In this document: positions 5,001 through 62,800 of the stretch, piece after piece
How the letters are laid out: each line of letters starts with the position of its first letter
How positions within the stretch are numbered: the first letter of the stretch is position 1
Origin: Octopus sinensis
Lineage: Eukaryota
Direction of reading: 5' to 3'
Assembly: GCF_006345805.1 (NCBI RefSeq)
Contig: NC_043011.1
Coordinates: 21,712,464 to 21,776,463 of the forward strand
Length of the DNA stretch: 64,000 nt
Made by a program: the position numbers and the translations under genes
Notes under the pieces: model-generated
What the model was told of the DNA's origin: nothing
Seen by the model: the letters and a program-made list of their open reading frames with translations, nothing else
Database searches by the model: none

Positions 5001-5345
5001 CATCATCATCGTTTAACGTCCATTCTCCATGCTAGCATGGGTTGGACGGTTCGACTGGGGATCTGAAAAGCCAGAAGGCTGCACCAGGCCCAGTCTGATC
5101 TGGCAATGCTTCTACAGCTGGATGCCCTTCCTAACGCCAACCACTCCGTGAGTGTAGTGGGTGCTTTTTATGTGCCACCTGCACAGGTGCCAGGCGAGGC
5201 TGGCATCGGCCACGGTCGGATTGGTGCATTTTACGTGCCACCGGCACGGAAGCAAGTCGAGGCGACACTGGCTTAGGCCACGATTCGGATGGTGCTTTTT
5301 ACGTGCCACCGACACAGAAGCCAGTCGAGGCAGCGCTGGCACGCT
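5001..5345 (-). mobile_element. SINE-like repeat (family B) with (GAT)n tail; further copies ~18260-18580, 40775-41250, 53722-53965, 57220-57510, 60090-60430
   Basis: CATCATCATCGTTTAACGTCC...CCATGCTAGCATGGGTTGGACGG...GGATGCCCTTCCTAACGCCAACCACTCCG plus internal GGCACGTAAAAAGCACC subrepeats. Confidence 0.85.
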
Positions 5346-5499
5346 AGAGTTGAACTAGGGTCAGCTGATGAAGGGGATTTTTCCTTGTGTAGTTTGTCTT
5401 GTACTCTGTTTTTCTGTTGTAAAAAAGTGGTTTGTTCCATGCTTGTTTTTCCGTTTTCGTTTCTCGTTGAGTTCTATGTCTAGTTGTGGTGTCCTGTAC

Positions 5500-6389
5500 T
5501 CACGTATATATATTTATATATGCATGTATATATACATGTAGATGTAGGTACGTACATATATGTATGTATGTATGCATATATTTTATTTATTACACTTATT
5601 GTATGACAGCGCCCTCGCGTCGATTCGATTCGTTCTTATTCTCCAAGTACTGTTTTATATATATATATATATATACACACACATACATATATACATACAT
5701 ACATATAAACATACATATATATATATATATACATACATATAAACATACATATATATATACATACATATAAACATACATATATATATACTACATACATATA
5801 AACACACATATATATATACATACATATATATATATATATACATATATACATACATATATAATATATACATATATACACATATATATATATACACATATAT
5901 ATACACATATATATACACATATATATACACATATATATACACATATATACATATATATATACACATATATACATACACATATATACATATACACATATAT
6001 ATATATACACATATATACATATATATACACATATATACATATATATACACATATATATATACATATATATATACACATATATATATACATATATTATACA
6101 CATATATATACACACATATATACACATATACATACATATAAACATACTTATACATATAAACATACATATAAACATACTTATACATATAAACATACATATA
6201 CATATATATGTAATATATATATATATATCATCATCATCATCATTTAGCGTCTGTTTTCCATGCTAGCATGGGTTGGACGGTTCAACTGGGGTCTATGTAT
6301 ACATATACATATGTATATATATATAGATATATATATATTTGTATATATATAGATATATATATATGTGTATATATATATACATATATATT

Positions 6390-38644: not shown

Positions 38645-38852
38645 TTACTCAGGTTTCTTCAATGACAGATGAAGAGTTTTATTTATAGTCAATCTGTCAG
38701 GATTGATTTTGCGCAGCAGCTGTGCAATACAGTTGGTCAACTGTTCATTGGTCATATTTAACTTTTTCGATTTGAACTTTTGTAACAAGTCTTTTGTACT
38801 CATGGGCTTACGCATTAAATAACGCCGGATACTCTCCTCAGAAATTCCTTCA
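38645..38852 (-). CDS. GTF2F1: GTF2F1 terminal coding exon (winged-helix domain)
   Basis: TTACAG|T GAA GGA ... stop TAA at 38647-38645, 208 nt. Confidence 0.96.
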
Positions 38853-41800
38853 CTGTAATGAGAAAAAAAGAGAGAGAAAAAATCAGAATTTAACAACCAT
38901 TATATAAATTGCATATATACTCTTTACTCTTTTACTTGTTTCAGTCATTTGACTGCGGCCATGCTGGAGCACTGCCTTTAATCGAGCAACTCGACCCCAG
39001 AATTTATTCTTTTGTAAGCCCAGTACTTATTCTGTCGGTCTCTTTTGCCGAACTGCTAAGTAACGGGGACATAAACACACCAGCATCGGTTGTCAAGCAA
39101 TGCTGGGGGACAAACACAGACACGCATATATATACATATATACGACGGGCTTCTTTCAGTTTGCCTGCTGAATCCACTCACAAAGCTTTGGTTGGCCTGC
39201 AGCTATAGTAGAAGACACTCAAAGTGTTGAGCAGTGGGACTGAACCCAAGACCACAAGACTGGGAATAAAGCAAGATACCCACACAACCATGCCAGTGCC
39301 TTCAGCCACACCTGGATAAAAGTTTTTGTATGTATCTGGCAAAAAAAAACCTTCCATCTCAATCACATTGCTACATGCAATAATGAGCTAAGCTGGTAGC
39401 TGTGGCAAAATTATTGTTGAATTCATGGCCTAGACATGTTTACTTATCACAAATTGCTTTTATTTACAAGGTTTATTCCATAAATCAGGGAATCTAACAG
39501 GTAAACAAGAATTTTACTCCATACAAGAGTAGTTGGGACTTAGAAGTTAATATGTAAAAACACTTTATTTCACATTGCTCCAATTCACTCAGCTGTAGAA
39601 ATGAGTTGTGACATCCCTGGTGCCAGGCTGTATCGGCTTTTGCTTTTCTCTTGGATAACATCGGTGGCATGGAGAGGGAAGACTGGCATGCATGGGTGAC
39701 TGCTGGTCTTCTACAAACAACTTTGCTCAGACTTGTGCCTCGGAAGGAAAATTCTAGGTGCAATCTGATGGTCATTCATGACTGAAGGGGGTCATCTATG
39801 TAAATGTGTCCAATGGTTCTAAAGATCTATTATGGGTTACTGTTTAGCTCCAGTTTCATAGAAGCAACCAAATCAGAAACAACTCCTAGCCTCGCCACGA
39901 CCACCATCATATTTCCATGTGAATTGGTACTAAGTTGAAACTATAACATAAACTAAAGCATAAAGAACTAAATAGACAATAAAATGCTTTGCAGTGGATT
40001 TTAACTCTAGACAACCTGCACAGACCAATGTAAATGGTTAATAACTTGAAAAAGATAAGATAAGACAAAAAGCAACATTATTATTAATTTTTGAGAGCAA
40101 CAACACAAACCTGCTAGTGCATGGAACATTCCCAACAGGACTCTCAGTTCGCACTTTTTTACTTGCAAATGATGTTTCTGGTTCAGCTTTTCGTTTCTGT
40201 GGGAGGACTGGAATAACAGGAAAATCAAATATTAGTTCATAAATCATATGTGGGTGAACAGCAAAAATCAAAAAGATGACATACATATTCCTTTTGAATA
40301 TGTTCCAGTAGATTTTAACATGAATACAATGTCCAAGACATTTGGTGCACTGTTGTACCCAAGAATACCTGTCCGCCAAAGCAGAATTGATATCAAAGCT
40401 GGTTGCCATATAAAAGCACCCTGTACACTTTGTGGAGTGGTCAGCATTAGGAAGGGCATCCAGCCATAGAAACCGTGCCAGAACAGACAATGGAACCTAA
40501 TGCAGCCCCTGGCCTTACCAGCTACAGTCAAATCATCCAACCCATGCCAGCATGGATAACAGATGTTAAATGATGATGATGTTGATGATGACAACAGTGG
40601 TAACCATGTACACAGACCCTAAATTAGCTGGAACATATTAAGAAAATATGCACACGGTGAACAGCACAAATCATAATGATGACATACATATTCATTCTTA
40701 ATATGTTCCACAGATTCTAACATGAATACAACACTGATAACCATATACTCACATAATTGTAGTTGTGATATCTGCACCGGTGGCACGTAAAAAGCACCGA
40801 TCGATCGTGGCCATTGCCAGCCTGCCAGTGGCACCTAAAAAGCACCATTCATTAGGCAGCCGATGCCAGCGCCGCCTTGACTGGCTTCCATGCCGGTGGC
40901 ACGTAAAAAGTACCAACCAATCATGGCCGTTGCCAGCCTACCCTGGCACCTGTGCTGGTGGCTCCTAAAAAGCACCATCCGTATGTGGCCGATGCCAGCG
41001 CCGCCTTGGCTGGCTTCTGTGTCAGTGGCACATAAAAACCACCAACTGATTGTGGCCGTTGCCAGCCTCCTCTGGCACGTAAAAAGCACCCACTACACTC
41101 ACGGAGTGGTTGGCGTTAGGAAGGGCATCCAGCTGTAGAAACACTGCCAGATCAGACTGGAACCTGGTGCAGCCTCTTGGCTTCCCAGACCCCAGTTAAA
41201 CCGTCCAACCCATGCTAGCATGGAAAACGGACGTTAAAAGATGATGATGGAACATATTAATAAGAAACATTAGTTAATTAAACGAATAAATTCAATTTAC
41301 AGTCTCAAAACAAAATATGTTGCCTTCAATTGGATAGTATTTTTCAGTTTTCTTATAATTTATGTAATGAAGAGTATCATTAGTTACATGTTCCTGATGG
41401 ACTAAATGCTGGTTTATTACTTTGTCCGAATTTGAGAGTGACACCCCAAGGAATTTTTGTTCAATGCTCAGGCATTTTCTTGCTATAGTTATCTTTAGGT
41501 AACAAGTGAGATGTGGTTCCCCAACCTATCTATATACACAACAGGCTTCTTTCAGTATCTGTGTGCAAAATCCACTTACAAGGATTTGGTGGGCCTAGGC
41601 ATATAGTAGAAGACACTTGCTCAAGGTGTCATACAGTTGGACTGAACTGAAGATAATGTGGTTGGGAAGCAAACTTCTTACCACAAAGCCAAACCTACAA
41701 CTGACAAAATAAATTATGAACCAAATACTGGGGCAGATATAACTGACTAATACTGTCTCTACTAAACTGCTGGCTTTGTATATAAATTAGAAGTAATTAT

Positions 41801-44800
41801 TATTAATGGTGGTGAATTGGCAGAATTGTTAGCATGCCAGGCAAAATATTTAGCAGCATTTTGTCTATCTTTATTGTCGGAGTTCAAACTCCACTGAGTC
41901 AACTGCCTTTCATCATTTTAGGGTTGACAAAATACCAGTACTGGGGTCAATGTAATCAACTAAGCCCCTCCCACAAAATTTCAGGCTTTATACCTATAAT
42001 AGAGAGGATTATTATTATTATTGAGAGAGCAATGCATGCCATCAAAGTGAAACTGGGGTACAAATATACGAAACCCAATATACCTATCATGACTACCAGT
42101 CTGATAAGGGTACACCAGGCACATGCATCACAACCATGTGGCATGGTGATCTCACATCAAGATAAACAGTGTATGACTAAGAGGATTGGGAGCTTTATGC
42201 TAGATGGAGGTGGTGTGTGTTTAACACCTATGTTTCCAGAGATGAATTATTCAAACCCCAAATAATCCCTCTTAACACATGGCTATGATGCTCCCATACG
42301 ACTTCTGCTCATGACCAGAGCTGCACATATCATCAGCCATTAAGGGACATGTTCAACTAGTTATGGTCAAGCAAATCTCAGAATATTTGCTGTAGCCTAT
42401 CTGTCATACTAAGACAAAACATATACATGATAACATTTTCAATCAGTTCAGATCAGAAGCAATGAGAGCCACTGCCTGGTACTGCATCTTATTATTATTA
42501 AGAAATCAGTTCCACAACAACAACTACTACTACTATCATCATCATCTCAGGTTTTGTTGTAACTCCTGGAGTCTTGCATGCATAACAGGCTTGCTGCCTG
42601 CAGCCTACGGTACCATGCTATCTGTTCTTTTCAACTATCTAATAATTTCCTGATTATTCTGGCCATGCCAAGGAGGCAAACCTTTTGTAGCAGTTCTACT
42701 GGGCACTCTATTCCAATTTCCTTTATATTATTCTTGATGCATTCTGGTATTGTTCCCAAAGAACCAACAATTATTGGCACTATCTTCACCTTATTCATTT
42801 TCTATAACCAGGCTATTTCATACTTAAGAGGATTGTATATGTCTATTTTTTCGCCTTCCTTCTTGACTATTCATAGATTAAAGAGACACTATTATTATGA
42901 GCACCTTTTCGAACTCCACCTGTCTAACACCCGTGGACATGTTTACAATGTCAGAAAACAGCACAGCTTGCATGACTTTCGGAAACATTTTTTCACGCTA
43001 GGAATTGCTGAAGCATGGAACAAGATGCCGGCATCAGTTGTTAGTTGTCGGAGCACTTCATCCTTCAAAACTTCCATGCTTCCTGAGATTTGCCAACACT
43101 ACACCTGATTTTCTCCCCTCCATACACACACAAGCATGTATCTGACTCATACACTGTTCACTTTCCAGACATTTGTACATTACTGCATATGCTTTATACG
43201 CACTTTTGACAAGTTGTGGTGCACCTGAGCACTGTATACAATAATTTCATCATTATTATTTATATATTTGTGCTTAATTACCTTTCTTTTCCTCGGGTTG
43301 TGCTGCAGATGAAGCAGTTGAAGCAGGAGCTGCTTTCTTATCCAGAACTTTTTTGGATCTCTCTTTAATCTGCAACATAAATCATTTCACTCAGTAAAAC
43401 AAAAGATAATAAAATGTAGCTTGAAATATCATCATCATTATTTATTGCCCATGTTCCTTGCCGAGTTAGATGGTTTCATGGGAACCAATGGGTCCAAGGA
43501 CTGCATTGTGCACTAGTGTTTTGTTTTGGCATTGTTTCTACGGCTGAATGCCCTTCCTAACACTAAACAGTGAGTACTGGGTGCTTTTTATGTGTTACCA
43601 GCGCAAGTGAGGTTGCAGTGCAGCTTACAAGAATAAGGAACCTTGAGAGGGTTGGGAGCTTTGTACTAAGAGATGGGCGAGGGAGGGGGATGTGAGTGCT
43701 TAACCCTTTGGCATTCACATTATTTTGTCAAAAGTAATCCTTATTTATACACATTGTTTTGAATTAATCATGCATTACCTTGTAGCTACAAGATTTTGAT
43801 GAGGTGATTGTTGATTTTTAAAATGATATTGTAGGGTTGGTGTGAGAGGCCAGATCTGGCCAGTTTGAACGTAAAACATACTCTCCCTCTCTCTTTTACT
43901 CTTTTACTTGCTTCAGTTATTTGACTGCGGCCATGCTGGAGCACCGCCTTTTAATCGAGCAACTCAACCCCGGGACTTATTCTTTTGTAAGCCCATTACT
44001 TATTCTATTGGTCTCTTTTGCCGAACCGCTAAGTAACGGGGACATAAACACACCAGCCTCGGTTGTCAAGCAATGCTAAGGGGACATCACAGACACACAA
44101 ACACATACATATATATAAATACGACAGGCTTCTTTCAGTTTCCATCTACCAAATCCACTCACAAGGCTTTGGTCGGCCCAAAGCTATAGTAGAAGACACT
44201 TGCCCAAGGTGCCATGCAGTGGGACTGAACTCGGAACCATGTGGTTGGTAAACAAACTACTTACCACACAGCCACTCCTGCGCCTACATGGGGAATATTT
44301 TGACTGGATATGGCTAGTTTAAATGCTAAAGGGTTAAAGTATGAGAGAAGAGGAAAGAGTAGGTTTCTTGCTGTAGAGAAACTACATGGTTATTCATAAT
44401 TAGAAGTGAGAGTGCGAATCATTAGGTGGAGCTGGAAAGAGATAAACAGTGGTGATGAGGTGTCCATGTGGTCCCACTCAGTAAGAGGTGAGTAGAAGTG
44501 AGTGGGGACAGAGGAACTAGGTGTGTGGGTGGGTAAATGGTTGCAAGAAACTATGGGGGAGCGAGAGGCAGGGGAATGCCAAGAAGCTAATTCAGTTGCA
44601 GCCCATATGTTGAGTAAACAACAGCATTTACTTTGAAGTACCACTGCTTTTATATTCCTCTCCAACATGGATGGTGGCAGATTAGACAGCCCTAGTGGCA
44701 TTCACAATATATTTGCTGAAATAGTATTCCAGTTTTTATATCCAGCTGGGAGATTTTGCTGATCCTGACGGTCCAAGCGTCCTTATCATAATTCTGTTAT

Positions 44801-47800
44801 GCTTCTTTAACAGTGTTCTTATTCAACACTGCACAACCTTTCTGGTGTCTGTTTGTATTCATTCTACTGCATGTAAACAACCAAAGTTAAAATATATAGT
44901 AAGCTATGCAAAATTAAATCATGTCTCACTACACATCAATCCTTCAACAAATGTTTCATGTCAATTAACATTCACTCAACAGGAAATTTATCTTTATACA
45001 CACTTTGTTCGGCTTTTGTTAAAGATATAATATAAATTTATTGCAAAGGAGCCTTCTCTTTCATCGCTACCTGGTGGTTACCGCCCGTTGACGAGGGACA
45101 ACAATCCCGAAACTAGTTCAAGCGTATCACTCAGGCTTGCGAGGAAGGGATGGCCTCCCTTTGCAAATACTCCAAGGACACAGATATTGTGTCTAAAGCC
45201 AGCTAGAGACGAAGATCTCTTGGGGCTATAAAGCTACAGTAACACTCCCTCCCCAATGTGGTTAGCCATGATAAGATGGCTTCTATACTTTACATTATCG
45301 AGCGATTACTGTTTCAATCTCATTCTGAGATTTAATTATGCATAATATAAATTATTTTGTGTGAAAAACAAATCTTGCCTTCTGACATTCTTTTGAACAT
45401 ATTTTAAACTTGGAACTCCTTTCAATGGTAGCATTCCCTTACTAAACGTTTATGATATCACCATGTTGGTGAGTGAATCACTGCCATCCCAACCACTCAA
45501 ATGATTGTCTTTTGCATGCCTAAGTGTACACAATCTCATATGTATGAGCAATACTGTAATGAATATCTTGTTTCAGTTTTCAAGAGGGATGCAAGGTATT
45601 TACTTACCTTTAGGAGTTGAGAAGTACGTTTCTCATCCATATCAGAGTCGCTTCCAGATGAAGATGAACTGCTGTCACTATCTGATGAAGAGAAATCAAA
45701 GAGTACTTAGGAAGTTTCAAAGAACTAGTATTGTTGTTTATAGCAATATAGCCAAAGCTGAGAGTAAACAAAGTGGTGATAAAGAAAACTTAATGACTGT
45801 GAAGTTAAACCATTGAATAGCAGGAATAAATGGAGGAGCTTCTGTGGAGTGGAGAGGGGAAAACCATCATAAAAGAGTAGTTAGTATTAGAAAAGATATC
45901 CAACCAAAACCAGAAAAAAAACTGCTCCAAGAGCATGAACATATATTCACAAACACTATTTCCCCCAGTTAACACAAGTAAAATAGAAGTAAATAAAAAA
46001 TTTGTTGTATAACAATATAGAGCAAAGCATTGTAAGGCCATGGTCCCTAACTTTTCAAAATGAAAGGGCCAACCTTGGGTTTTAATGAGATACTCAAGGT
46101 TAAATTTTCTCAACAAGCTTAATACTAGTAATGGTTATTTCTATGTTAGTTATAGAAAGCTTTAAAATTTAATGTAAATACTTCTCCCTCACCATTCAAT
46201 GTTGGGCAGAATTCTTATAATGATTGTATCATTCTAAATAAATGGTCTATCTCATTTTTTAAAAGATTTTCCCTTGATTTAAAAGAATACATCTTACAAA
46301 AAATCGAAGATAGTTAAGTTATATGTATTTTTTCAATGTCCAAGTTAACTTGTTTAAATCCAAATGAGTAAAAGTACATTTTAATTTCTATAATAAAAAA
46401 TAAAGGAAACAAAAAAAACATTTTTTTTTGTAATTAACACAGTGTATATAATTCAAAAAGGAAATAAAAAAATATGCTCTGAAATGAAATGCCATATCAA
46501 AATAATTGATCCATTAAGGGATTAAAGGACTGTGGAGTGTTCATTACTGTAAAGCATTTATAATATGGTGTGCTGAAAAGCTTCTGGCTTGAGTAAAAGA
46601 AAATACAGGAGGATCAGTTAATTATGATTTTATTCAACATATTCCCCTCTCAGATTCACACACTTATTGCAGGGGTACTTCAGTCTTTCTGAGCCCTATA
46701 AAAGAACTCAGAAAGTTGGGCCACCAACCAGGCCTTTTGTGATACCCTCAAAGCTAGGAACTTTTCAGCATCCCCTTGTACATCCTCTCTATACCATTTC
46801 TTTCTCTTAATATGTTACTGTGTTAAAGACAGGGTCTTTATATTTTTATGAGCTGTATTTCTTGCAATAAGTGTCTATTAGTTTCTTCCAAACCTTCTTT
46901 TAATATATGGTGCAAATATACAAAAACAGACAGAGACAGGTGAGAGAACAACAAACAAGGTGTATTAATTTGATGCTCAGTAAGAATGGAAAAGTCTTTG
47001 ATGTTTCAAGACTATGCTCTTCAACAGAAAGGAATGAGGAAAGAAAACAGAGAGAGAATAAAAACATGTCTGGATTAACTGTTTCACATGTTGAATTCTT
47101 CTTTTACTTATATTAAGGTAATTTTTAAAACAATTTTTAACCAGAATAGAAAAATGCCTTTGGGAGTGAATAGTACCAAACATGTCGACTAAATGTTACC
47201 AATTCTAATAACATGTACATCCAACAAGGGAGCCTTCATAGGGTCAATTGGCTTGCTATACATAGCAGTTAAAAATCTCCTTCAAATCACATCCTACCAT
47301 TTAAAAAAAACCCAGATATATTGGATAATATACTTCTCAGATATACTCCTAAGAAAGACGGCAGATTGTGAATGGTATACCTTTAATTCACAGGCCCCTG
47401 GGGTTAAACAACAACTCAAAATATGTATGTTTTTATTTGTTTCTTTGATTTTACCTTTTTTGGTCTTTTCATCTTTTATATCTTCATTTTCCTCATCCTC
47501 ATTCTTCTGTTCCTCTTCATCACTGCTGGCCTCAGAATCAATCAGTTTTCTTAAACCAGTCTCTTCATCAACACCTTTTTCCTCATACTTCTCTTCTTTG
47601 TCACGGTCCTCAATTTCAGACATACTACTGCAAGGGCAAAATTCCACTAACTCATATACAATTTCATTTACACAATAAACAACAACAATAATAACAGTAC
47701 GTGGATAGCAGATATACAATTCAGTCGTATTTTCCATATCATAAGTCATCCACTTTATTTTCTCTTATAGTTCAAAAATTTCTATATTATTAGACACAGG

Positions 47801-50800
47801 TGTTTGCTTCCCAATCATGGTTCAGGGTTCACTCCCACTACATGGCATCTTGGGTAAGTGTTTTCTAGCTTCAGGACTATCAAAGCCTTGAGTGGATTTG
47901 GTAAATGGAAACTGAAAGAAGCTTGCTGTATATGTGTGTGTGTGCAGCCATATGCAACTCAACTTGTTACATCTGTGCTATGTGATTGTATAGTTAAGAA
48001 GCTTGTTCGCAGCTACATACTTCCAGGTTCAATCCCAGCGCACCACCACCATTACCATCATCAAACAACCACTTTTCCATACTTACATGGGTCAAAAGGC
48101 AGATTTTCTACAGCTGGATGCCCTTTCTGTTGTCAACCTTCACTTGTTTCCAAGCAAGATAACATTTTCTCCATAGCTAGACATATTTTTCATGAAAGAC
48201 TGGAAACAAACATCACTCAGTGATGCTCATTTTCAACTATCACATGATGTTAAAAACACATGCACACACACACACACAATTTCCATCAACCAAATCCATG
48301 CACAAGGCTTTAGTCAACCCAGGGTTATAGTAGAAAACACTTGCCCAGAGTGCCATGCAGTGGGACAGAACTTGAGACTACAAGGTTTAGAGGCAAGCTT
48401 CTTAACCACATAGGCATACCAGTGCTAGGGCAAGTATCTCTTAAAATAATTTCAGCTTGTCCATGTTCTTAATAATAAAGGTTACAATAATTAAACAAAT
48501 CTGTCAAGACATAAGTGTGCTTGCTAGGGGCACAATGTAAAGACATTGACAGGAGATAAACTTTAGACCAGTACTTCTTAGACTAAGGTGTTGGCCAATT
48601 AAGCCTATTATGACAGGAGCATTGGACTAACTAAATGTAGGTGAAACACTACTTTACTTCTTTTGATAGCCAATAGATTAAACATTTTACCAAGTTAGCC
48701 ACTTAGGACTCCAGCAAATAAGAGTGAAATGAAAAAAAAAAAAAATATGTGCCTATGATTACATTCATATAAATGCAGACAATTCAAGTCACACAAGAGA
48801 CATCATTACTGAGCAACACCAAAAACTAATCGTGGACAAACATGAAATACCTACCTGGCTGAGTCAGTCATATAATCCACCTCACGATCATCATAATCAC
48901 CTTCATCACTTTCTTCAATTGCTTCATTATCAGAATTGCTCTTGGAGTTCTTTTTAATTTTAACATTTTTTGCATCTTTCTTTTGGGGTTTATCTGGTTT
49001 ATTATCTAATATATATGTATAAGAAAATTTCAAAAAAGCATATAAATTAGAAAAAATTATATAACAGTAAATTCTAGCAAATCATCACAATCACCATCGG
49101 TTTCTTCTTTAAGCTGCACATGTTCTCAATCATTTTTTATCAATGGACCTCCTTGATTTTTATTTTACTTAGGTGGCCCCTCATAGCTATTCAATACTTT
49201 AAAAAAGTCCCATTATATTTTTATAATTAAATATAATCAGAAATTGCATTAAAAAACTAGTTAAAATATTTTGTGTATTGTAGAAGTATAACCTATTTAC
49301 TGAAATGGATTTTAACAATAAAATCTTATATGGACCCCCAAAAGCCTTATGGACCCAGGTTGAAAACCACTGCGGTAGAGCATGAACAACTTATTGAGGC
49401 AGTATTCTACAGACATATGCCCTTCTTGTCACCAACATTTATTTGATTTTCTCAAGTAAGATGTTTCTGACTGGACTGCATACAAAACCATTGAAACTGC
49501 CAAGCTACAGGACATATTATTAGCAAAAGCAAAGACTCCCATATATATATGTGTGTGTGTTTGTGTGTAAAAAGCATGCACACTGATACCACATGAAAGA
49601 GCTCCCATGCCAGTGCCATGTAAAAAACTTCCATGTTGGTGCCATGTAAGTGGTTGGCGTTAGGAAAGGCATCCAGTTGTAGAAACCATGCCAAAACAGA
49701 CAAATAGAGCCTGGTGTAGCTCTCTGAGTTGCTACCTGCTGTCAAACCATCCAACCCATGCCAGCATGGAAAATGGATTTTAAATGAGGAGGTGGTGGTG
49801 ATGATGATGATATATGATGAGCTGCTACCATGCAGTTTCTGTCTCCCAAATTTTATTCACAAGGCACTGGTTTGTTCAAGACTATAGCAGAAAACACTTG
49901 CACAAGTGCTAGAGTGGGATAGAACCTGAAACCATGTGATTACCAGGGGAAAATTCTATCAAATACATAATACAAGAATATTAACATATTTTTCAAAAGC
50001 ACATCAGCTGTTGTTTTTTAAGCAACAGTCAGAGGAGGTTAATCTGTAACCATGAACTCTGTAGTTCATACGAGACAAGTGAGATTGATGTAGTTGATAT
50101 CCAGCTTGGATACAGGTACATCAGTATCTACAGATAGAATTATGGATAGCAGAAGAGAAAAGAGGCAATTAAATTTCAAAGAGTTACAGTTCTAGGAAGG
50201 AAGTATTGGTTAATGAACCTGGTAGGTGAGAAGGAGTAATAAAACTAATGGCTTGAAGAAAATGAAGATGCAAGTTTCACTTTACAAGAGAATAGTTGGC
50301 ATTCATAGAGATATGATATCATAACAAATTATGCAATTTATAGAGATGTCAGAACCCGACTGAGCCTCTTCAAAATGTCAGACTGTACAGGCATTATATA
50401 TAATTCTGACTGTTGCAAGAAGCTTGACAATGTCCAATACTTCGAATATATTAACAACAGATAAGAGCCTTCATTTAAATAATAATTTATGGGAACTAAA
50501 TTTTTTTTAAATCTATTAGAAAGATACTTGGGTGTGTGTGTGGTGTACACACAGAAACAGATACACACACATACATATATATATAGATATATATACATAC
50601 ACACACACACAAATATACCCTGATGGGATATGAGCTCAGAAAATAAAGAGCCAGAAGAAATGCTAATGATTCTACCAATTTGCTACTTTTGTAGAAAATA
50701 CTGAATTTTTATCTTTCACTTGTTTCTGCTATTAGACAAATAAGAAATAAAGAGTAAAGAAAGAAACAATGGAAATAAGATGAGATAGAAACACTTTAAA

Positions 50801-53800: not shown

Positions 53801-56800
53801 ACCCACTACACTCACGGAGTGGTTGGCATTAGGAAGGGCATCCAGCTGTAGAAATACTGCCAGATCAGACTGGGCCTGGTGCAGCCTTCTGGCTTCCCAG
53901 ACCCCAGTTGAACTGTCCAACCCATGCTAGCATAGAAAACGGACGTTAAACGATGATGATGATGATTCTTCTAAACTTGGAAGGAAAGGGTTCAGTTTAG
54001 CTTTAGATATGGTATCATATCTTTCATTTGGACTCCAGCCATGCATGGGCACTGCATTGAAGGATTTTAGTCAAATGAATCAAGCTCAGTACATTTTTTC
54101 TTAAGCCTATTAGTGTCTTAAGCTGAACTGTTAAGTTATGGGGACAGAAACAAACCGGCACCAGTTGTCAAGTGATAGAATAAGTGCCAAGTTTAAAAAG
54201 AAGTATTGGAGTCAAACTGTTCAACTTTTTTTAATACAAATGTTGCTTTTCATGTGTGGGTTTCCCAAAAACGTAACTTGGGATCGTTAGTCCTGATATT
54301 TGTAGTACATGGCAATAAATCAAAAGACACAAAATTAATACATGTAGAAATTGTGTAAAAGTATAAAATCATAAAAACTTCCCAGGACAAAGTAAACATA
54401 GAAAGATAATTAAAAATACTTCGTAAAAAAAAAGAGAAACACCAGAGACTTTTACCTTTTACTGGTTTCAGTCTTTAGACTGTGGCCATGCTGGGGCACC
54501 ACTTTGAAGAATTTTTAGTCAAATGAATCAATGCCAGCACTTTTTTTTAGAAGCCTGGTACTTGTTCTGTTGATGTCTCGTGCCAAACCACTAAGTTAAG
54601 GGGATGTAAGCATAACATCACCGGTTCTCAAACAAGTGGTATGGGGACAAACACAGACACAAAGACACACACATATATATATTGAGTCATCCCATAAATA
54701 ATGTGGGTTTTTTTCAATTGGATGAACTAAAAGTCAAAGGGGGATGGAATAAACTACCTGCATCAACTTGCTATAAAAGCAGGTAGTAATGTTACCTTGT
54801 CCTTATTCTTAGTGCAAGTTTTGAAGAGTGCAGCTTGATATTAACAGTTATTTTTTCAAAGCTATAATGGAAGTGACAAAGGAGCATATTTATGAGTTCA
54901 ATAAAGTTGAACAACACAAAGAAAGCGTGAAGAATATTAATGCAATACATGGGGATTGTACAATAAGCATAAGCTAGTGTCAACGGTGGTTCCAGAAATT
55001 AAGAGCCGGAAACTATAACCTAGAAGATGAGCATCATCCTGCAAACCCTGGTGGAACAAAATCCCATCATAACTGATGAGGAAGTAGCAGAGAAGCTTAA
55101 ATTTGATCCTTCATTGATACTTACATGCCATTGGAAAAGTCAGCAAATTGGGTCAATGAGTTCCTCACAAACTTCCTGAGTCTAATTGCATGCAGAGAGT
55201 GAAAGTGTGCTCTTCTTTGCTGTCATGTCTCACGAATGAACCCTTTTGCAACCAGATAGAGACTGGTGATAAGAAATGGGTTCCCTATAAAAATGTCAAG
55301 TGCTGAAAACAGTGGATGGGGAAAGGAGAAACACTGGCACTCCAGGCTAAAGAAGGTCTTCAGCCACGTAAGATGTTGTTATCTGTTTGGTGGGATAAGA
55401 AAGGGTTAGTTCACTTTGAACTTTTAAATCCAAACCAAATGATAACAAAGGAGATCTACTGTGAGCAGCTGGAGAGGCTTAAGTCAGCACTAGAAGAAAA
55501 ACGACTTTGGTTTCAAGAGGAAAGGTGTTCTTCCATCAGGATAATGCTCAGCCACATACAGCAAAGATGACATTCCAAAGGCTGGAGCAGTCTGAATGAG
55601 AAATGATGCCCTACCTACCATATTCGCTGGACATTGATCCATTTGACTATCATTTACTCTGCAGTCTTCAAAATCATTTGGAGGGAAAAAATATGAATTA
55701 TGTAGACAAGATCAGAACAATACTGGAGGAGTATTTTCCGTCATGGACAAGTGAAATTTAGAAGAAGGGCCTTGCAAGTCTACCAGATAGATGGAAGAGC
55801 ATTGTAGAAAATGAAGGAGAGTATATTTTAGGTTAAAAAAGAACTTTGTTTATCTTAATCTTGAAAAATAAAAGAAGTATAAAAAAACTGCATTATTTAT
55901 GGGATGACCCAATATATATATATTTATACATACACACACACATCGTATATATATATATATATATATATATATACTTACGATGGTCTTCTTTCAGTTTCTG
56001 TCTACCAATCCACTCACAAGGCTTTAGTTGGCCTAAGGTTATAGTAGAAGACACTTGCCCAAGGTGCCAAACAGTGGAAGTGAAGTCGGAACCATGTGGT
56101 TGGGAAGCAAGCTTCTTAGTACACAGCCATGCCTGCACCAATTGTGTATTAGACTATTTATTATATAATATTTAGAAAGAAAACTGTGATCAAAAGTCTC
56201 AGAACAGGATTTTTTAATAAGAAAATCACTAACTTTTTAAATTCTTCTTCTGCCTCTTCAGCATTTAGATATTTGTATTTGATGATAGGATTGAAGTTAT
56301 ACCAATGTTCAACAGGAAAAGCTTCAAATGCACCATCAGCACATTGGGTGAATATGAAATAAGAAGTATTGTCAGAGATTGTTCCTTCCCTCACACCTTT
56401 GAATCTGAAATTACAGCAATAACATTATAAAAAAATAATAATCATTTCAGCAATTTTAATTTATGATTTCTATATTCCTTTATTTATTTACTAATGCGAA
56501 TGTTGTTTCTTTTAAAAGCTAAATTTAAGTATTTAGAAGGAAAACAAACTCAAATAATACAGGTATAAAATTTAATATAATATATTAAAAAGATTATAAA
56601 ATCACAAGATTGCTGGTGCCACATCTGCAGCATTGGTGTTGGTTCCACAAAGAAAAGCACCCAGTACATGCTGTAAAGCGGTTGGCATTAGGAAGGGCAT
56701 CCAGCCGTAGAAACCATGCCAAAACAGAGCCTGGTGCAACTCTGGCTTGTCAGCTCCTGTAAAACCATCCAACCCGTGTCAGTATGGAAATTGGATGATG

Positions 56801-59800: not shown

Positions 59801-62800
59801 CAAGGCTTTAGTTGGCCCTTGGCTATAGTAGAAGACACTTGCCCAAGATGCCATGCAGTGAGACTGAACTCAGAACCATGTGGTTAAGAAGCAAACCTCT
59901 TACCACACAGCCATGCCTGCACCTATGACTAAAAATTAACATCATCATCATTTAATATCTGCTTTCTATGCTGGCATAGGTTGGATGAAGCTGGAGTTCA
60001 GGTGATTATTATGTGGCACCAGCACCTGAAAGGACAAGCCTGTATGTGTGGAAGACAGCGATTTTACTTTGCTTGATGCATCAAAATTCATCATCATCGT
60101 TTAACGTCCGTTTTCCATGCTAGCATGGGTTGGACGGTTCAACTGGGGTCTGGGAAGCCGGAAGGCTGCGCCAGGCCCAGTCTGATCTGGCAGTGTTTCT
60201 ACGGCTGGATGCCCTTCCTTACGCCAACCACTCCGTGAGTGTAGTGGGTGCTTTTTACGTGCCAGACGAGGCTGGCAAACGGCCACGATTGGATGGTGCA
60301 TTTTATGTGCCACCGGCACGGAGGCCAGTTGGAGCGGCGCTGGCAATGGCCACATTCAGATGGTTCTCTTACGTGCCATCGGCACTGGTATCACAGTTAC
60401 AATTTCCATTGATGTTGATCGATTTCGATTTTCAACATCAAAATTATGAAGACAGATGTGATCGTCTGATTTTCCATTGCAAGTTTAAAAGAAGCCAGCA
60501 TGGAAAACAGATATCAAATGGTGATGATGATGACAATGAATTTGTAATAGATCAAGCAAGCTCACTCAATCTATGCACTAAAAATAGAAATTTAACCCTT
60601 TAGCATTCAGTTATTTATTCACACTGTTTTGAATTAATCATAGCTTGGAGGGAACCTGTGGAAGAGATAGACCCAGGAAGACATTGGATGAGGTGTGAAG
60701 CATGATCTTCAGATACTGAGTTTTATGGTGGCAATGACAAGTGACTGAGACCTTTAGTAATTTGCTGTGCTTGAGAAGACATGTCAAGCCAAGTGAAATC
60801 GTAGTTGTGGCTATTGTTGGTGACACATTAAAGGTAGCCACTACACTCTTAGAGTGGTTGGCATTAGGAAGGGCATCCAGTTGCAGAAACCAGCTTACCA
60901 GCCCCAGTCTAATTGTCTAACCCAGTGGTTTTCAACCAGGGTTCCGCGGGCCCTTAGGGTTCAGCCAGTACAGTCCAGGGGTTCCGCAAGAAGTTACAAA
61001 ACTGCTAAAATCAGCAGTAATTTTTAAGTCTCCTGTGCAGATATGTGTGCATAAGACTATTAAATTATTGCACAGGGGTTCCTCGAGCCAGTGGAATATT
61101 TCCTTGGGGTTCCGCTCCAGCAAAAAGTTTGAAAAGCACTGGTCTAACCCATCATGGGAAATGAACGCTAAATAATGATGATAATTGTTTATTTTGAAAA
61201 TGACATTGTAGTGTAGGTGTGAGAAGCCAGATCTGGCTGGTATTTAGGCCAGATATGGCCGGTTTAATTACTAAAGGGTTAAAGTAACCCATGCTAGCAT
61301 GGAGAATGGACGTTAAACGATGATGATGATGATGATGAGTACCTTTTGCAGTTCTGCTTTGAGCCAATTTTCATGTGCCATGGTTGATCCTCAGGTTTGT
61401 ATTTCTTTAGCATAACACCATACTTCTTACGCCGAGCTTCTTCTTTTTGCTCACGACCAAATTCACTGCCAGCACCAAATTTGGGCATCAAATCAATGTC
61501 ATTAGCAGTTTTGTATTCTCGTAAGTTGTTTTCTCGCTCTAAACGGACATTTGTCTGCAAGTAATAACCATAAAAAAAAAACAGTAAAACTTTAGCAAAT
61601 CGAAAGGAAAAGTTTTATTTACATATTTTAACATAACAAAATATCTTTAATATTCATTTCTTCATAATGTTCAAATTTTTAGATGTTTCAACTGAAACCT
61701 TACTGAGACCCTAGTAGTAGGCCTGTCATAAGCCCTAGGACCCACAAAGCTAGAGCTTAATTCAGCTTCCATGCTGTGTGAATGACTGAGATAACAACAT
61801 TGTTCCCTGGATGGCATGCCAATCCACTGTAGGTTTAACTTCCCAGCAACTGCGGGAACTCATTTACAGCTGAATGGACACAAGCAATGTGAAATGAAGT
61901 GTTTTGTTCAAGAACACAATGCAACACCCAGTTCAGGAGGTGAAACCTTCCAGTCACCAAACTGCACCTGTTTCCAAACAAGGTAATATTTCCCAAGGCC
62001 TGCTTCATGTGATGTCAAGACCAGATATCAAGACACATATATAAATACAAAAGGCTTCTCTCAGATTCTGTCTACCAAATCTACTCACAGGGCTTTGGTT
62101 AGCCAAGGGCTATAAGTAGAAAACACTTTTTCAAGATGTCATGCAGCAGAACTGAACCCAAGACCACATAGTTGGAAAGCAAGTTTCTTAACAACACAGC
62201 CACCCCTGTATCTATATACATGTATAAATATACTATCATCAGCATTTTACATATCTTACATGTTGGTTTGGTTTTTATGACTGGATATTCTTTCTTTCAC
62301 ATTTTGTCATGACAGAAGCAATAGTAAGTTCATCTGTGACAGGACAAAACAGTCCTCCCTACACTGCGTGACTTGCATTTATTCAGTTACTAAAAAAAAA
62401 AAAGGTTGTAGTAAGAAGCTTGTTTTCCAACCACATGGTTCCAGGTTCAGTCCCACTGCATGACACTTTGGGTAAGTGTCTTCTACTATAGCCTTGAGCT
62501 GGCCAAAGCCTTGTAAGTGGATTTGGTAGAAGGAAACTGAAAGAAGCCTGTCGTGTGTGTATGTCTTTATGTTGGTGTTTGTCCCCACCACCACTTGACA
62601 GCTGGTGTTGGTGTGTTTACATCCCCATAACTTAGCAGTTCAGTAAGAGACCAATAGAATAAATACCAGGCTTTAAAAAATAAGTACTGGCAGTCAATTA
62701 ATTTGACTAAAACTTCAAGTTGGTGTCTCAGCATGGATGTAGTCTAGTGACTGGAAGGAGTAAAAAAGAAGTTTTTTTTTTAAAGTTTTAACTTACATAT

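Follow-up and report, generated by a model that had tools for sequence, protein, structure and literature searches.

A young, 5'-truncated retrozyme-type repeat with a hammerhead fold in a TFIIF-alpha intron of Octopus sinensis, probably inserted by Penelope-like enzymes

What is the GC-richer island of some 300 nucleotides (nt) found antisense within a TFIIF-alpha (GTF2F1-type) intron of Octopus sinensis, and how did it get there? The island falls within 64,000 nt of contig NC_043011.1 (assembly GCF_006345805.1, positions 21,712,464 to 21,776,463 of the forward strand); we call this whole stretch the window and number positions from its first letter. Abundant small circular RNAs have recently been recognised as products of metazoan retrozymes, whose mode of movement is still argued. 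An original prediction, made from the letters of the window, took the island for a complete retrozyme monomer of the kind without long terminal repeats (non-LTR), bordered by a target-site duplication (TSD). We now consider it highly probable that the insert is a young, 5'-truncated copy of a 357-nt, hammerhead-bearing repeat of the non-LTR retrozyme type, flanked by a 12-bp TSD in a TFIIF-alpha intron and likely placed there through target-primed reverse transcription by Penelope-like enzymes. The prediction of a short, non-coding, multi-copy hammerhead element of retrozyme type with a TSD is supported by genome copies, by the RNA fold and by an empty site; the monomer is not complete, as the window holds 301 nt of the 357-nt unit.

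The insert is bordered by the 12-nt direct repeat ATAATATAAATT, whose only two occurrences in the 64-kb window are 45027-45038 and 45342-45353 (0.07 occurrences expected from shuffles; none of 100 shuffles gave two), so that 303 nt lie between two exact copies, as had been noticed. The remaining outward features that had been described also hold: the insert is richer in GC (45.5%) than its 300-nt flanks (33.7% and 36.0%) or the whole window (36.9%), and it contains no ATG-started frame of at least 30 amino acids (aa), the longest being 29 aa. The predicted extent needs one amendment, in that the island and repeat are borne out and the element proper starts at 45041, after two bases TA. Matches of the repeat family, here called family A, begin only at query base 3, which is 45041, and comparison of the flanks of 29 copies marks the TA as foreign to both family A and the duplication.

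45027..45038, no strand: left copy of the 12-bp TSD (exact repeat; empty-site contig of run X6)
45039..45040, plus strand: two extra bases, TA, at the 5' junction
45041..45341, plus strand: 5'-truncated family A copy, unit positions 57-357 (own-genome matches, tandem-copy unit, comparison with L014)
45342..45353, no strand: right copy of the 12-bp TSD (exact repeat; empty-site contig of run X6)

Is the repeat a duplication made at insertion or, as the original prediction allowed for such AT-rich letters, a product of chance? Contigs of public sequencing runs, aligned to 44741-45640 for site occupancy, give the answer. In run X6 (organism D), a single 610-nt contig covers 44884-45026 and then 45342-45640; the 315 nt that are absent equal the insert plus one copy of the repeat, 12 letters at the joint 45026/45342 are compatible with both sides, and, apart from 3 gap letters, mismatches to the window number 1 in the 143 letters of the left flank and 4 in the 299 of the right. 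This is an empty site in a close relative, of the kind that the original prediction had proposed to look for, and because exactly the insert and one repeat copy are missing, the 12-nt repeat is a true TSD; together with the shuffle expectation, the empty site refutes chance. In run X2 (organism B) the site is filled, with zero-difference contigs across both junctions (44741-45070 and 45315-45640), and in an RNA run of organism C a contig begins at the final two bases of the insert and continues through the repeat into the flank, which suggests that organism C has a filled site too. The insert at 45041-45341 is a real, recent insertion, dated by two close relatives of which one lacks it and the other has it. 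Two changes, G>A at 45120 and C>T at 45246, are private to the window copy when it is set against 45 other young copies.

The element is far from alone in its genome. A search of the 2.72 Gb of its own assembly returned 2067 first-look candidates, and the 40 that were scored gave 93 matches of 94-100% identity, mostly spanning query bases 3-303. The copies are dispersed over many contigs, and the summed depth of the family in two DNA runs is hundreds to thousands of times that of single-copy sequence, with the 3' part deeper than the 5' part; family A is large and young, its copies being very alike. Tandem arrays are present as well: other copies stand head to tail, as in a four-unit array at C8:14885852-14887220, and since such copies are always spaced by 56 nt, the unit comprises a 56-nt leader plus 301 nt, or 357 nt in all (44% GC, non-coding). 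The window copy, without the leader and truncated at unit position 57, is 97.7% identical to the natural unit at L014:1445-1802; it is a single unit, not itself in tandem, and is the sole family A copy in the window. High copy number and tandem arrangement, both proposed earlier as checks, are therefore properties of the family.

How family A inserts was read from a sample of 29 insertions with their 58 outer ends. Half of these ends (29) lie at unit 356-358 and another 13 at 312-316; the remainder comprise 5 further 3'-type ends and 11 scattered 5' ends. Insertions of family A thus stop at either of two 3' positions, 43 nt apart, and have no set 5' end. The same two exits appear in contigs of runs X11 and X2, which leave the element at 45295/45298 and at 45341.

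45299..45341, plus strand: 43-nt 'tail' between the two alternative 3' ends (58-end census; contig divergence)

A shared TTACTGTT motif after both 3' ends was considered and dropped, the motif lying at unit 1 and 323 and the ends at about 358 and 315. Many insertions exceed one unit; counts of one to three units are common, composites range up to about four, and 18 of the 29 combine arms of both orientations. Around the whole composite, 9 insertions have a non-microsatellite duplication of 10-13 bp and 2 have a TA-rich one; in 9 none was found, and 9 sit in pure (TA)n, where duplications are unreadable. Because a single 10-13-bp duplication surrounds the whole composite, the tandem-plus-inverted structures arise in one event. 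The preferred surroundings are equally plain, with 16 of the 29 insertions adjoining (TA)5 or longer and the 30 nt downstream averaging 85% AT. At L072:1584-1669 the head-to-head junction of inverted arms is a long perfect hairpin that scores 54.8 bits against mir-2012 (cut-off 90), and composites of this sort could feed small-RNA pathways.

What kind of enzyme leaves such traces? The parts of Craig et al. 2021 (PMC8557442) drawn on here describe Penelope-like elements as forming partial tandems, with one copy inverted and 5'-truncated, a tail of 30-40 bp confined to one end and a bias towards microsatellites. For a Penelope-like enzyme, the relevant sections of Frangieh et al. 2024 (PMC11167929) explain the tail by two adjacent internal start sites of reverse transcription, report that both DNA strands are extended and that targets are AT-rich, and find hammerhead cleavage dispensable for insertion in vitro. 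The insertion anatomy of family A matches this published signature: as far as those sources go, both have partial tandem copies, an arm that is inverted and 5'-truncated, a tail restricted to one end (43 nt in family A against 30-40 bp), (TA)n or AT-rich targets and a hammerhead motif, whereas family A differs in having no reading frame, a unit of only 357 nt and no similarity to the Penelope-like loci sampled. The two 3' ends and the inverted arms within one duplication fit the in vitro results, and the anatomy ties a retrozyme to Penelope-like machinery without reliance on sequence similarity.

Candidate enzymes are plentiful. A genome search for the GIY-YIG domain gave 5029 first-look candidates, with 147 matches among the 150 scored, and open frames of 775-883 aa place a reverse transcriptase (RT) before a C-terminal GIY-YIG domain, which is the Penelope-like layout.

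L047:2221-4563: RT plus GIY-YIG frame, 781 aa
L049:3540-6188, minus strand: RT plus GIY-YIG frame, 883 aa
L051:3745-6069, minus strand: RT plus GIY-YIG frame, 775 aa

The GIY-YIG domain is above the Pfam cut-off in all three frames tested, and several copies with the RT plus GIY-YIG layout are more than 98% alike, which suggests that the Penelope-like elements of this genome were recently active. A different GC-rich repeat of about 260 nt, within (TA)n, flanks a Penelope-like copy at L050:1267-1522 and 5263-5529 and is found in L048 and L049 too.

The second half of the question concerns the RNA. As plus-strand RNA, 45041-45341 has a minimum free energy of -98.5 kcal/mol (z = -4.44; 0 of 100 shuffles as stable), and the minus strand of the insert folds less exceptionally (z = -3.40). 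The first 126 nt of the element form the rod that had been predicted, closed by UUGCAAAGG (45041-45049) with CCUUUGCAA (45158-45166) and carrying the GGGA/UCCC hairpin of a hammerhead-like apex at its tip; the four further hairpins named earlier are all present in the same fold, and the letters of the hammerhead lie where they had been placed.

45041..45166, plus strand: long imperfect rod, tipped by the helix II hairpin (RNA fold; same rod in the full unit)
45070..45140, plus strand: type-I hammerhead fold (Rfam HH9 match; pair counts across two families)
45073-45077 with 45127-45131, plus strand: distal helix I
Plus strand: helix I internal loop, UUAC/UA
45082-45087 with 45119-45124, plus strand: proximal helix I
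45088-45094, plus strand: hammerhead core UUGACGA, U at position 3
45095-45098 with 45105-45108, plus strand: helix II, GGGA/UCCC
45109-45112, plus strand: GAAA
45112-45117, plus strand: helix III, one A-U pair and palindromic loop, ACUAGU
45118..45119, plus strand: predicted cleavage site, after U17 of GUU (Rfam alignment position)
45120..45120, plus strand: private G-to-A at a CpG, adding a second C.A mismatch in helix I

The sole ribozyme match of Rfam in 44000-46500 is Hammerhead_HH9 (RF02275) at 45070-45140 on the plus strand (27 bits, E = 6.6e-4), which answers the proposed Rfam check with a sub-threshold hit; the gathering threshold that defines membership of clan CL00010/HH9 is not reached. 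The whole model (1-77) is aligned, including the GUUACC...GUA letters of the helix I loop. The GUU that precedes the predicted cut ends at 45118, where C (making GUC) takes the place of T in 16-21% of the family depth in two DNA runs. Two C.A mismatches interrupt helix I of the window copy, and the original prediction had read both as decay. This is right for 45086.45120, a private change, position 45120 being G in 42 of 43 copies, in 45 of 45 of a second set and in 100% of the family depth in runs; it does not hold for 45085.45121, which is family-wide. A genome-wide search with HH9 (58 candidates scored among 124,200) gave 4 matches of 31.8-35 bits in unrelated loci without reverse-transcriptase frames, and is uninformative.

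Has the fold been kept by selection on its pairs, or is it a likeness in one sequence? A second family, B, allows the comparison. First met beside an unrelated element (L051:6948-7264), it is 69% identical to family A over 331 nt and is known here from that locus and L052-L071, with over 2200 candidates and a period of about 350 nt. Its insertion anatomy is the same as that of family A, with inverted arms that stop 46 nt before the end of its direct arms. In the family B ribozyme the core is the canonical CUGAUGA, helix I is paired throughout and the site is GUC; base 10.1 varies (G, A or U), and the loop of helix III, CUCGAG or CUCGGG, is self-complementary. In an alignment of 27 distinct copies, to which families A and B contributed 14 and 13, the hammerhead pairing gives standard pairs in 95.1% of its cells; sliding the partners by 1-3 columns lowers the figure to 21-51%. 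Two-sided changes affect six pairs: the distal and the proximal part of helix I account for one each, helix II for three, and the last is the tertiary 3-8 pair of the core, which is CG in 14 copies, UG in 11 and UA in 2. Helix III has one invariant A-U pair with a self-complementary loop. As read from this alignment, helices I and II are kept through compensatory change between families A and B.

The 3-8 pair deserves separate attention. C3 and G8 pair in the active hammerhead, a combination that is near-universal. In family A, T stands at core position 3 in 41 of 43 copies; the reading of U3 as decay of the window copy accordingly fails, U being the majority state of the family. The conserved hammerhead core includes C3, the A15.1-U16.1 pair and H17 (PMC7151607), and all other core positions of family A fit C3-U4-G5-A6-N7-G8-A9...G12-A13-A14, A15.1-U16.1, H17. 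Exchanging the pair as C3G/G8C gives partial rescue, consistent with 3-8 pairing, in the portion of PMC11167929 that treats it; a natural U3 variant from halophiles is mentioned in passing, without a rate, in PMC7151607, and a literature search for the consequences of U3 turned up no rate for any such variant.

Counts of exact 24-mers across the genome give 169 for U3.G8, 52 for U3-A8 and 3 for C3-G8, and G8>A accounts for 16-19% of the family depth in two DNA runs. Intact C3 versions, which the original prediction had suggested seeking, do exist, yet at 3 exact 24-mers against 169 for U3.G8. In a tree of 48 family A copies, rooted with 4 of family B, copies with U3-A8 and GUC are basal, followed by U3-A8 with GUU and then by a young clade with U3.G8 and GUU that holds the window copy; the C3 copies are nested within this young clade. 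Because L013 and L072 overlap one genomic place, the five C3 tips represent three copies, matching the 24-mer count. The branching order is a lead and not a result, given only six old copies and a long outgroup branch, and some of the A8 may be simple decay, as G8 sits in a CpG. With C3-G8, U3.G8 and U3-A8 together in one family, at the copy numbers just given, nature offers an experiment on the catalytic core.

How does family A compare with known systems? The parts of Cervera and de la Pena 2020 (PMC7229834) used here describe metazoan non-LTR retrozymes as elements of 170-400 nt and low GC, with a type-I hammerhead, tandem copies and duplications of more than 4 bp. Against that description, family A agrees in its length and GC content, its type-I hammerhead fold (with a variant core), its tandem copies from dimers up, its duplications of more than 4 bp, its coexistence with Penelope-like elements and its highly self-paired RNA. 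It departs from the same description in its majority U, not C, at position 3 and in occurring mostly as dispersed composites of one to four units, not long arrays. Metazoan retrozymes are also expressed as linear and circular RNA of unit length, a point on which the contigs described below bear for family A. Family A meets most defining features of metazoan non-LTR retrozymes and is a new family of a previously known class. The mollusc in the sections of that paper drawn on here is a mussel, and no paper on such elements in octopus or any other cephalopod came up in a full-text literature search.

Among single hammerheads, the closest parallel is the axolotl HHR_Amex1, whose helix III is a single pair with a palindromic tetraloop and which cleaves poorly as a monomer and well as a dimer (PMC7229834, passages on this ribozyme). 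The window copy resembles it, and the amphibian satellite-2 type generally, in a helix III of one pair and a palindrome, A-CUAG-U, and the helix I internal loop and helix II loop of family A resemble the HH9-type tertiary contact. The two differ in that their sequences are unrelated outside the core, in U3.G8 for C3-G8 and in the family-wide C.A mismatch in helix I. Li, Clavereau and Pollet 2026 (bioRxiv 10.64898/2026.07.22.740005) propose that vertebrate retrozymes derive from Penelope-like elements as non-autonomous forms, a proposal that family A also fits. As far as the text of that preprint used here extends, its proposal parallels ours in Penelope-like dependence and in co-occurrence in one genome; the Xenopus link rests on pseudo-LTR similarity where that of family A rests on insertion anatomy, and Xenopus retrozymes are reported as excluded from introns whereas the window copy is intronic.

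A cycle that joins these observations can be sketched. Transcripts of tandem copies would be multimeric and would be cut by hammerheads dimerised through the palindromic loop of helix III; a host ligase would circularise the resulting 357-nt monomers; from one or the other of two internal start sites, a Penelope-like reverse transcriptase/endonuclease would copy the RNA over more than one unit's length; and integration would proceed by target-primed reverse transcription with Penelope-like enzymes. A bolder form of this cycle, in which family A is a currently active retrozyme whose hammerhead functions on U3.G8 or U3-A8 and makes 357-nt circles that a Penelope-like enzyme copies from two internal start sites, we put forward tentatively, as a proposal more doubtful than probable. 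Were it true, a catalytic core pair would have walked naturally through a wobble state while the element kept spreading.

Is the family expressed? Four runs, recognised as RNA by their spliced contigs and available as contigs rather than raw reads, all contain family A contigs, with summed word depths of 52-1000 in the bins of the element and 0-6 in the flanking intron. One variant contig has a depth of about 58, 859 and 272 in three RNA runs and is absent in the fourth; it exits the element into unique flank and therefore probably comes from one expressed locus. In runs X12 and X16 (kind undefined), family A appears as a single 387-nt contig with few other pieces. These 387 nt equal 357 + 30, a closed cycle of 31-letter words with the head-to-tail junction intact; the contig of run X12 differs from the window copy at 2 of 301 letters, and neither run, both being from organisms labelled unlike that of the window, covers the flanks of the insertion.

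A number of observations weigh against the reading of the insert as a Penelope-mobilised hammerhead retrozyme. The 387-nt cycles fit multimeric or circular molecules and fit tandem DNA equally well. Other repeats of the same stretch reach depths of 1,500 to 250,000 in the four RNA runs, so that family RNA may sum intronic and read-through copies. The core of the ribozyme has a non-canonical base at position 3, C3-G8 being present in only 3 exact 24-mers of the genome, and all HH9 scores lie between 27 and 33.6 bits (32.8-33.6 in three other copies), against a gathering score of 52; Rfam gave no match at E <= 0.05 for the family B copies or for one family A copy of the majority type. The covariation mostly reflects one split, between A and B, and therefore few independent events. 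No listed 5' end or internal junction of the 29 insertions lies near the predicted cut at unit 134/135, and, as many insertions exceed one unit, the usual templates were uncut multimers or re-closed circles, not cleaved linear monomers. On the enzyme side, RVT_1 exceeds the Pfam cut-off in only one of the three frames (30.1, 29.1 and 27.9 bits against 29.6), and no partner was found in the sample of 37 Penelope-like loci (12 of 3.2 kb, 5 of 8 kb and 20 of 7.3 kb), a small sample beside 5029 candidates. BLASTN of units A and B against these loci gave no similarity except to the adjacent family B copy, which beside the L051 element is an independent member of its own large family; pseudo-LTR similarity of the unit to an autonomous element was absent among the same loci, and a motif scan of the sampled loci found no hammerhead. 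An Rfam scan of the five 8-kb loci found none either at E <= 0.05, a scan that is insensitive, as it missed the family B copy in L051. The argument for Penelope-like mobilisation is consequently that of insertion anatomy, and the failure to find a partner among the sampled loci is the main gap in it.

Could a more familiar kind of repeat account for the insert? An ordinary short interspersed element (SINE), derived from tRNA, 5S or 7SL RNA and moved by a long interspersed element (LINE), with an incidental hammerhead-like fold, would also be short, non-coding and 5'-truncated; duplications of 10-13 bp in AT-rich targets suit LINE-driven insertion too, and the failure to find a Penelope-like partner among the sampled loci counts in its favour. 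Yet ARAGORN found no tRNA-like part in three loci with full units, nor in the insert, and the element ends in ...TTAATTATGC, with no poly(A) or simple-repeat tail of its own. Inverted arms inside a single duplication in 18 of 29 insertions, two fixed 3' ends with many insertions over more than one unit, and a fold that covaries between families A and B speak against it further, and we judge a SINE improbable. Considerably less credible still is a miniature inverted-repeat transposable element (MITE) or other cut-and-paste DNA transposon, which would likewise be small, multi-copy and flanked by direct repeats in AT-rich DNA: terminal inverted repeats with a constant duplication length are seen in none of the 29 loci. 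The ends of the element are not inverted copies of one another (among the inverted repeats listed for the region, none has arms at 45041 and 45341), copies have variable 5' ends yet stop at one of two fixed 3' sites, the duplications range from 10 to 13 bp, and units stand head to tail with a defined junction.

Tandem arrays such as the four units on C8, together with sub-threshold Rfam scores and a U3 core, could instead recall a piece of satellite DNA that was spread by recombination and is like a hammerhead by chance. That reading is very unlikely, given copies that are dispersed across contigs in duplication-flanked composites, an empty site with exactly one duplication copy and no insert, and six two-sided pair changes, with 95% of the cells paired against 21-51% in the slid controls. 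An altogether different idea is that the TFIIF-alpha gene makes use of the insert, as a ribozyme or regulatory RNA within its intron comparable to the hammerheads conserved in amniote introns; the insert is intronic, HH9-like and 254 nt from an exon. This we regard as scarcely credible: a close relative has no insert at the site, the window copy has a private, helix-breaking change at 45120, it is one among thousands of copies, and the ribozyme strand is opposite to the gene and so is not part of the pre-mRNA. The truncated retrozyme-type repeat remains the preferred reading. What, then, does this copy do? As a single truncated unit on the strand opposite to its host gene, with U3.G8 in its core and helix I interrupted by two C.A mismatches, it is probably inert and dead on arrival, with no circle produced; nothing points to a host function. 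The window itself would hold an ordinary, inert intronic repeat copy.

The antisense location that the original prediction gave for the element is confirmed by spliced contigs and by TFIIF_alpha (PF05793) exons on the minus strand. In all four RNA runs the contigs have joints 43369->45608, 45681->47455 and 47627->48855, each CT..AC on the plus strand and hence GT..AG on the minus strand, which sets the exon edges within 43282-49006 at 43369, 45608-45681, 47455-47627 and 48855. The element lies antisense in the intron 43370-45607, at the distance from the 74-nt exon noted above.

43370..45607, minus strand: host intron, TFIIF-alpha (GTF2F1-type) gene (spliced contigs, 4/4 RNA runs)
45608..45681, minus strand: neighbouring 74-nt exon of the TFIIF-alpha gene (joints in 4/4 RNA runs)
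61351-61551 and 56233-56409, minus strand: TFIIF_alpha (PF05793) exons
48854-49081, minus strand: weaker TFIIF_alpha exon match
38648-38899, minus strand: strong C-terminal TFIIF_alpha exon

Two smaller observations belong to the same gene. The 74-nt exon contains an imperfect direct repeat, GTCGCTTCCAGATGAAGA / GTCACTATCTGATGAAGA. At 43828-44448, in the same intron as the element, lies another repeat, which reaches a summed word depth of about 100,000-250,000 in every one of the four RNA runs, compared with 100-200 for the contig of the host mRNA.

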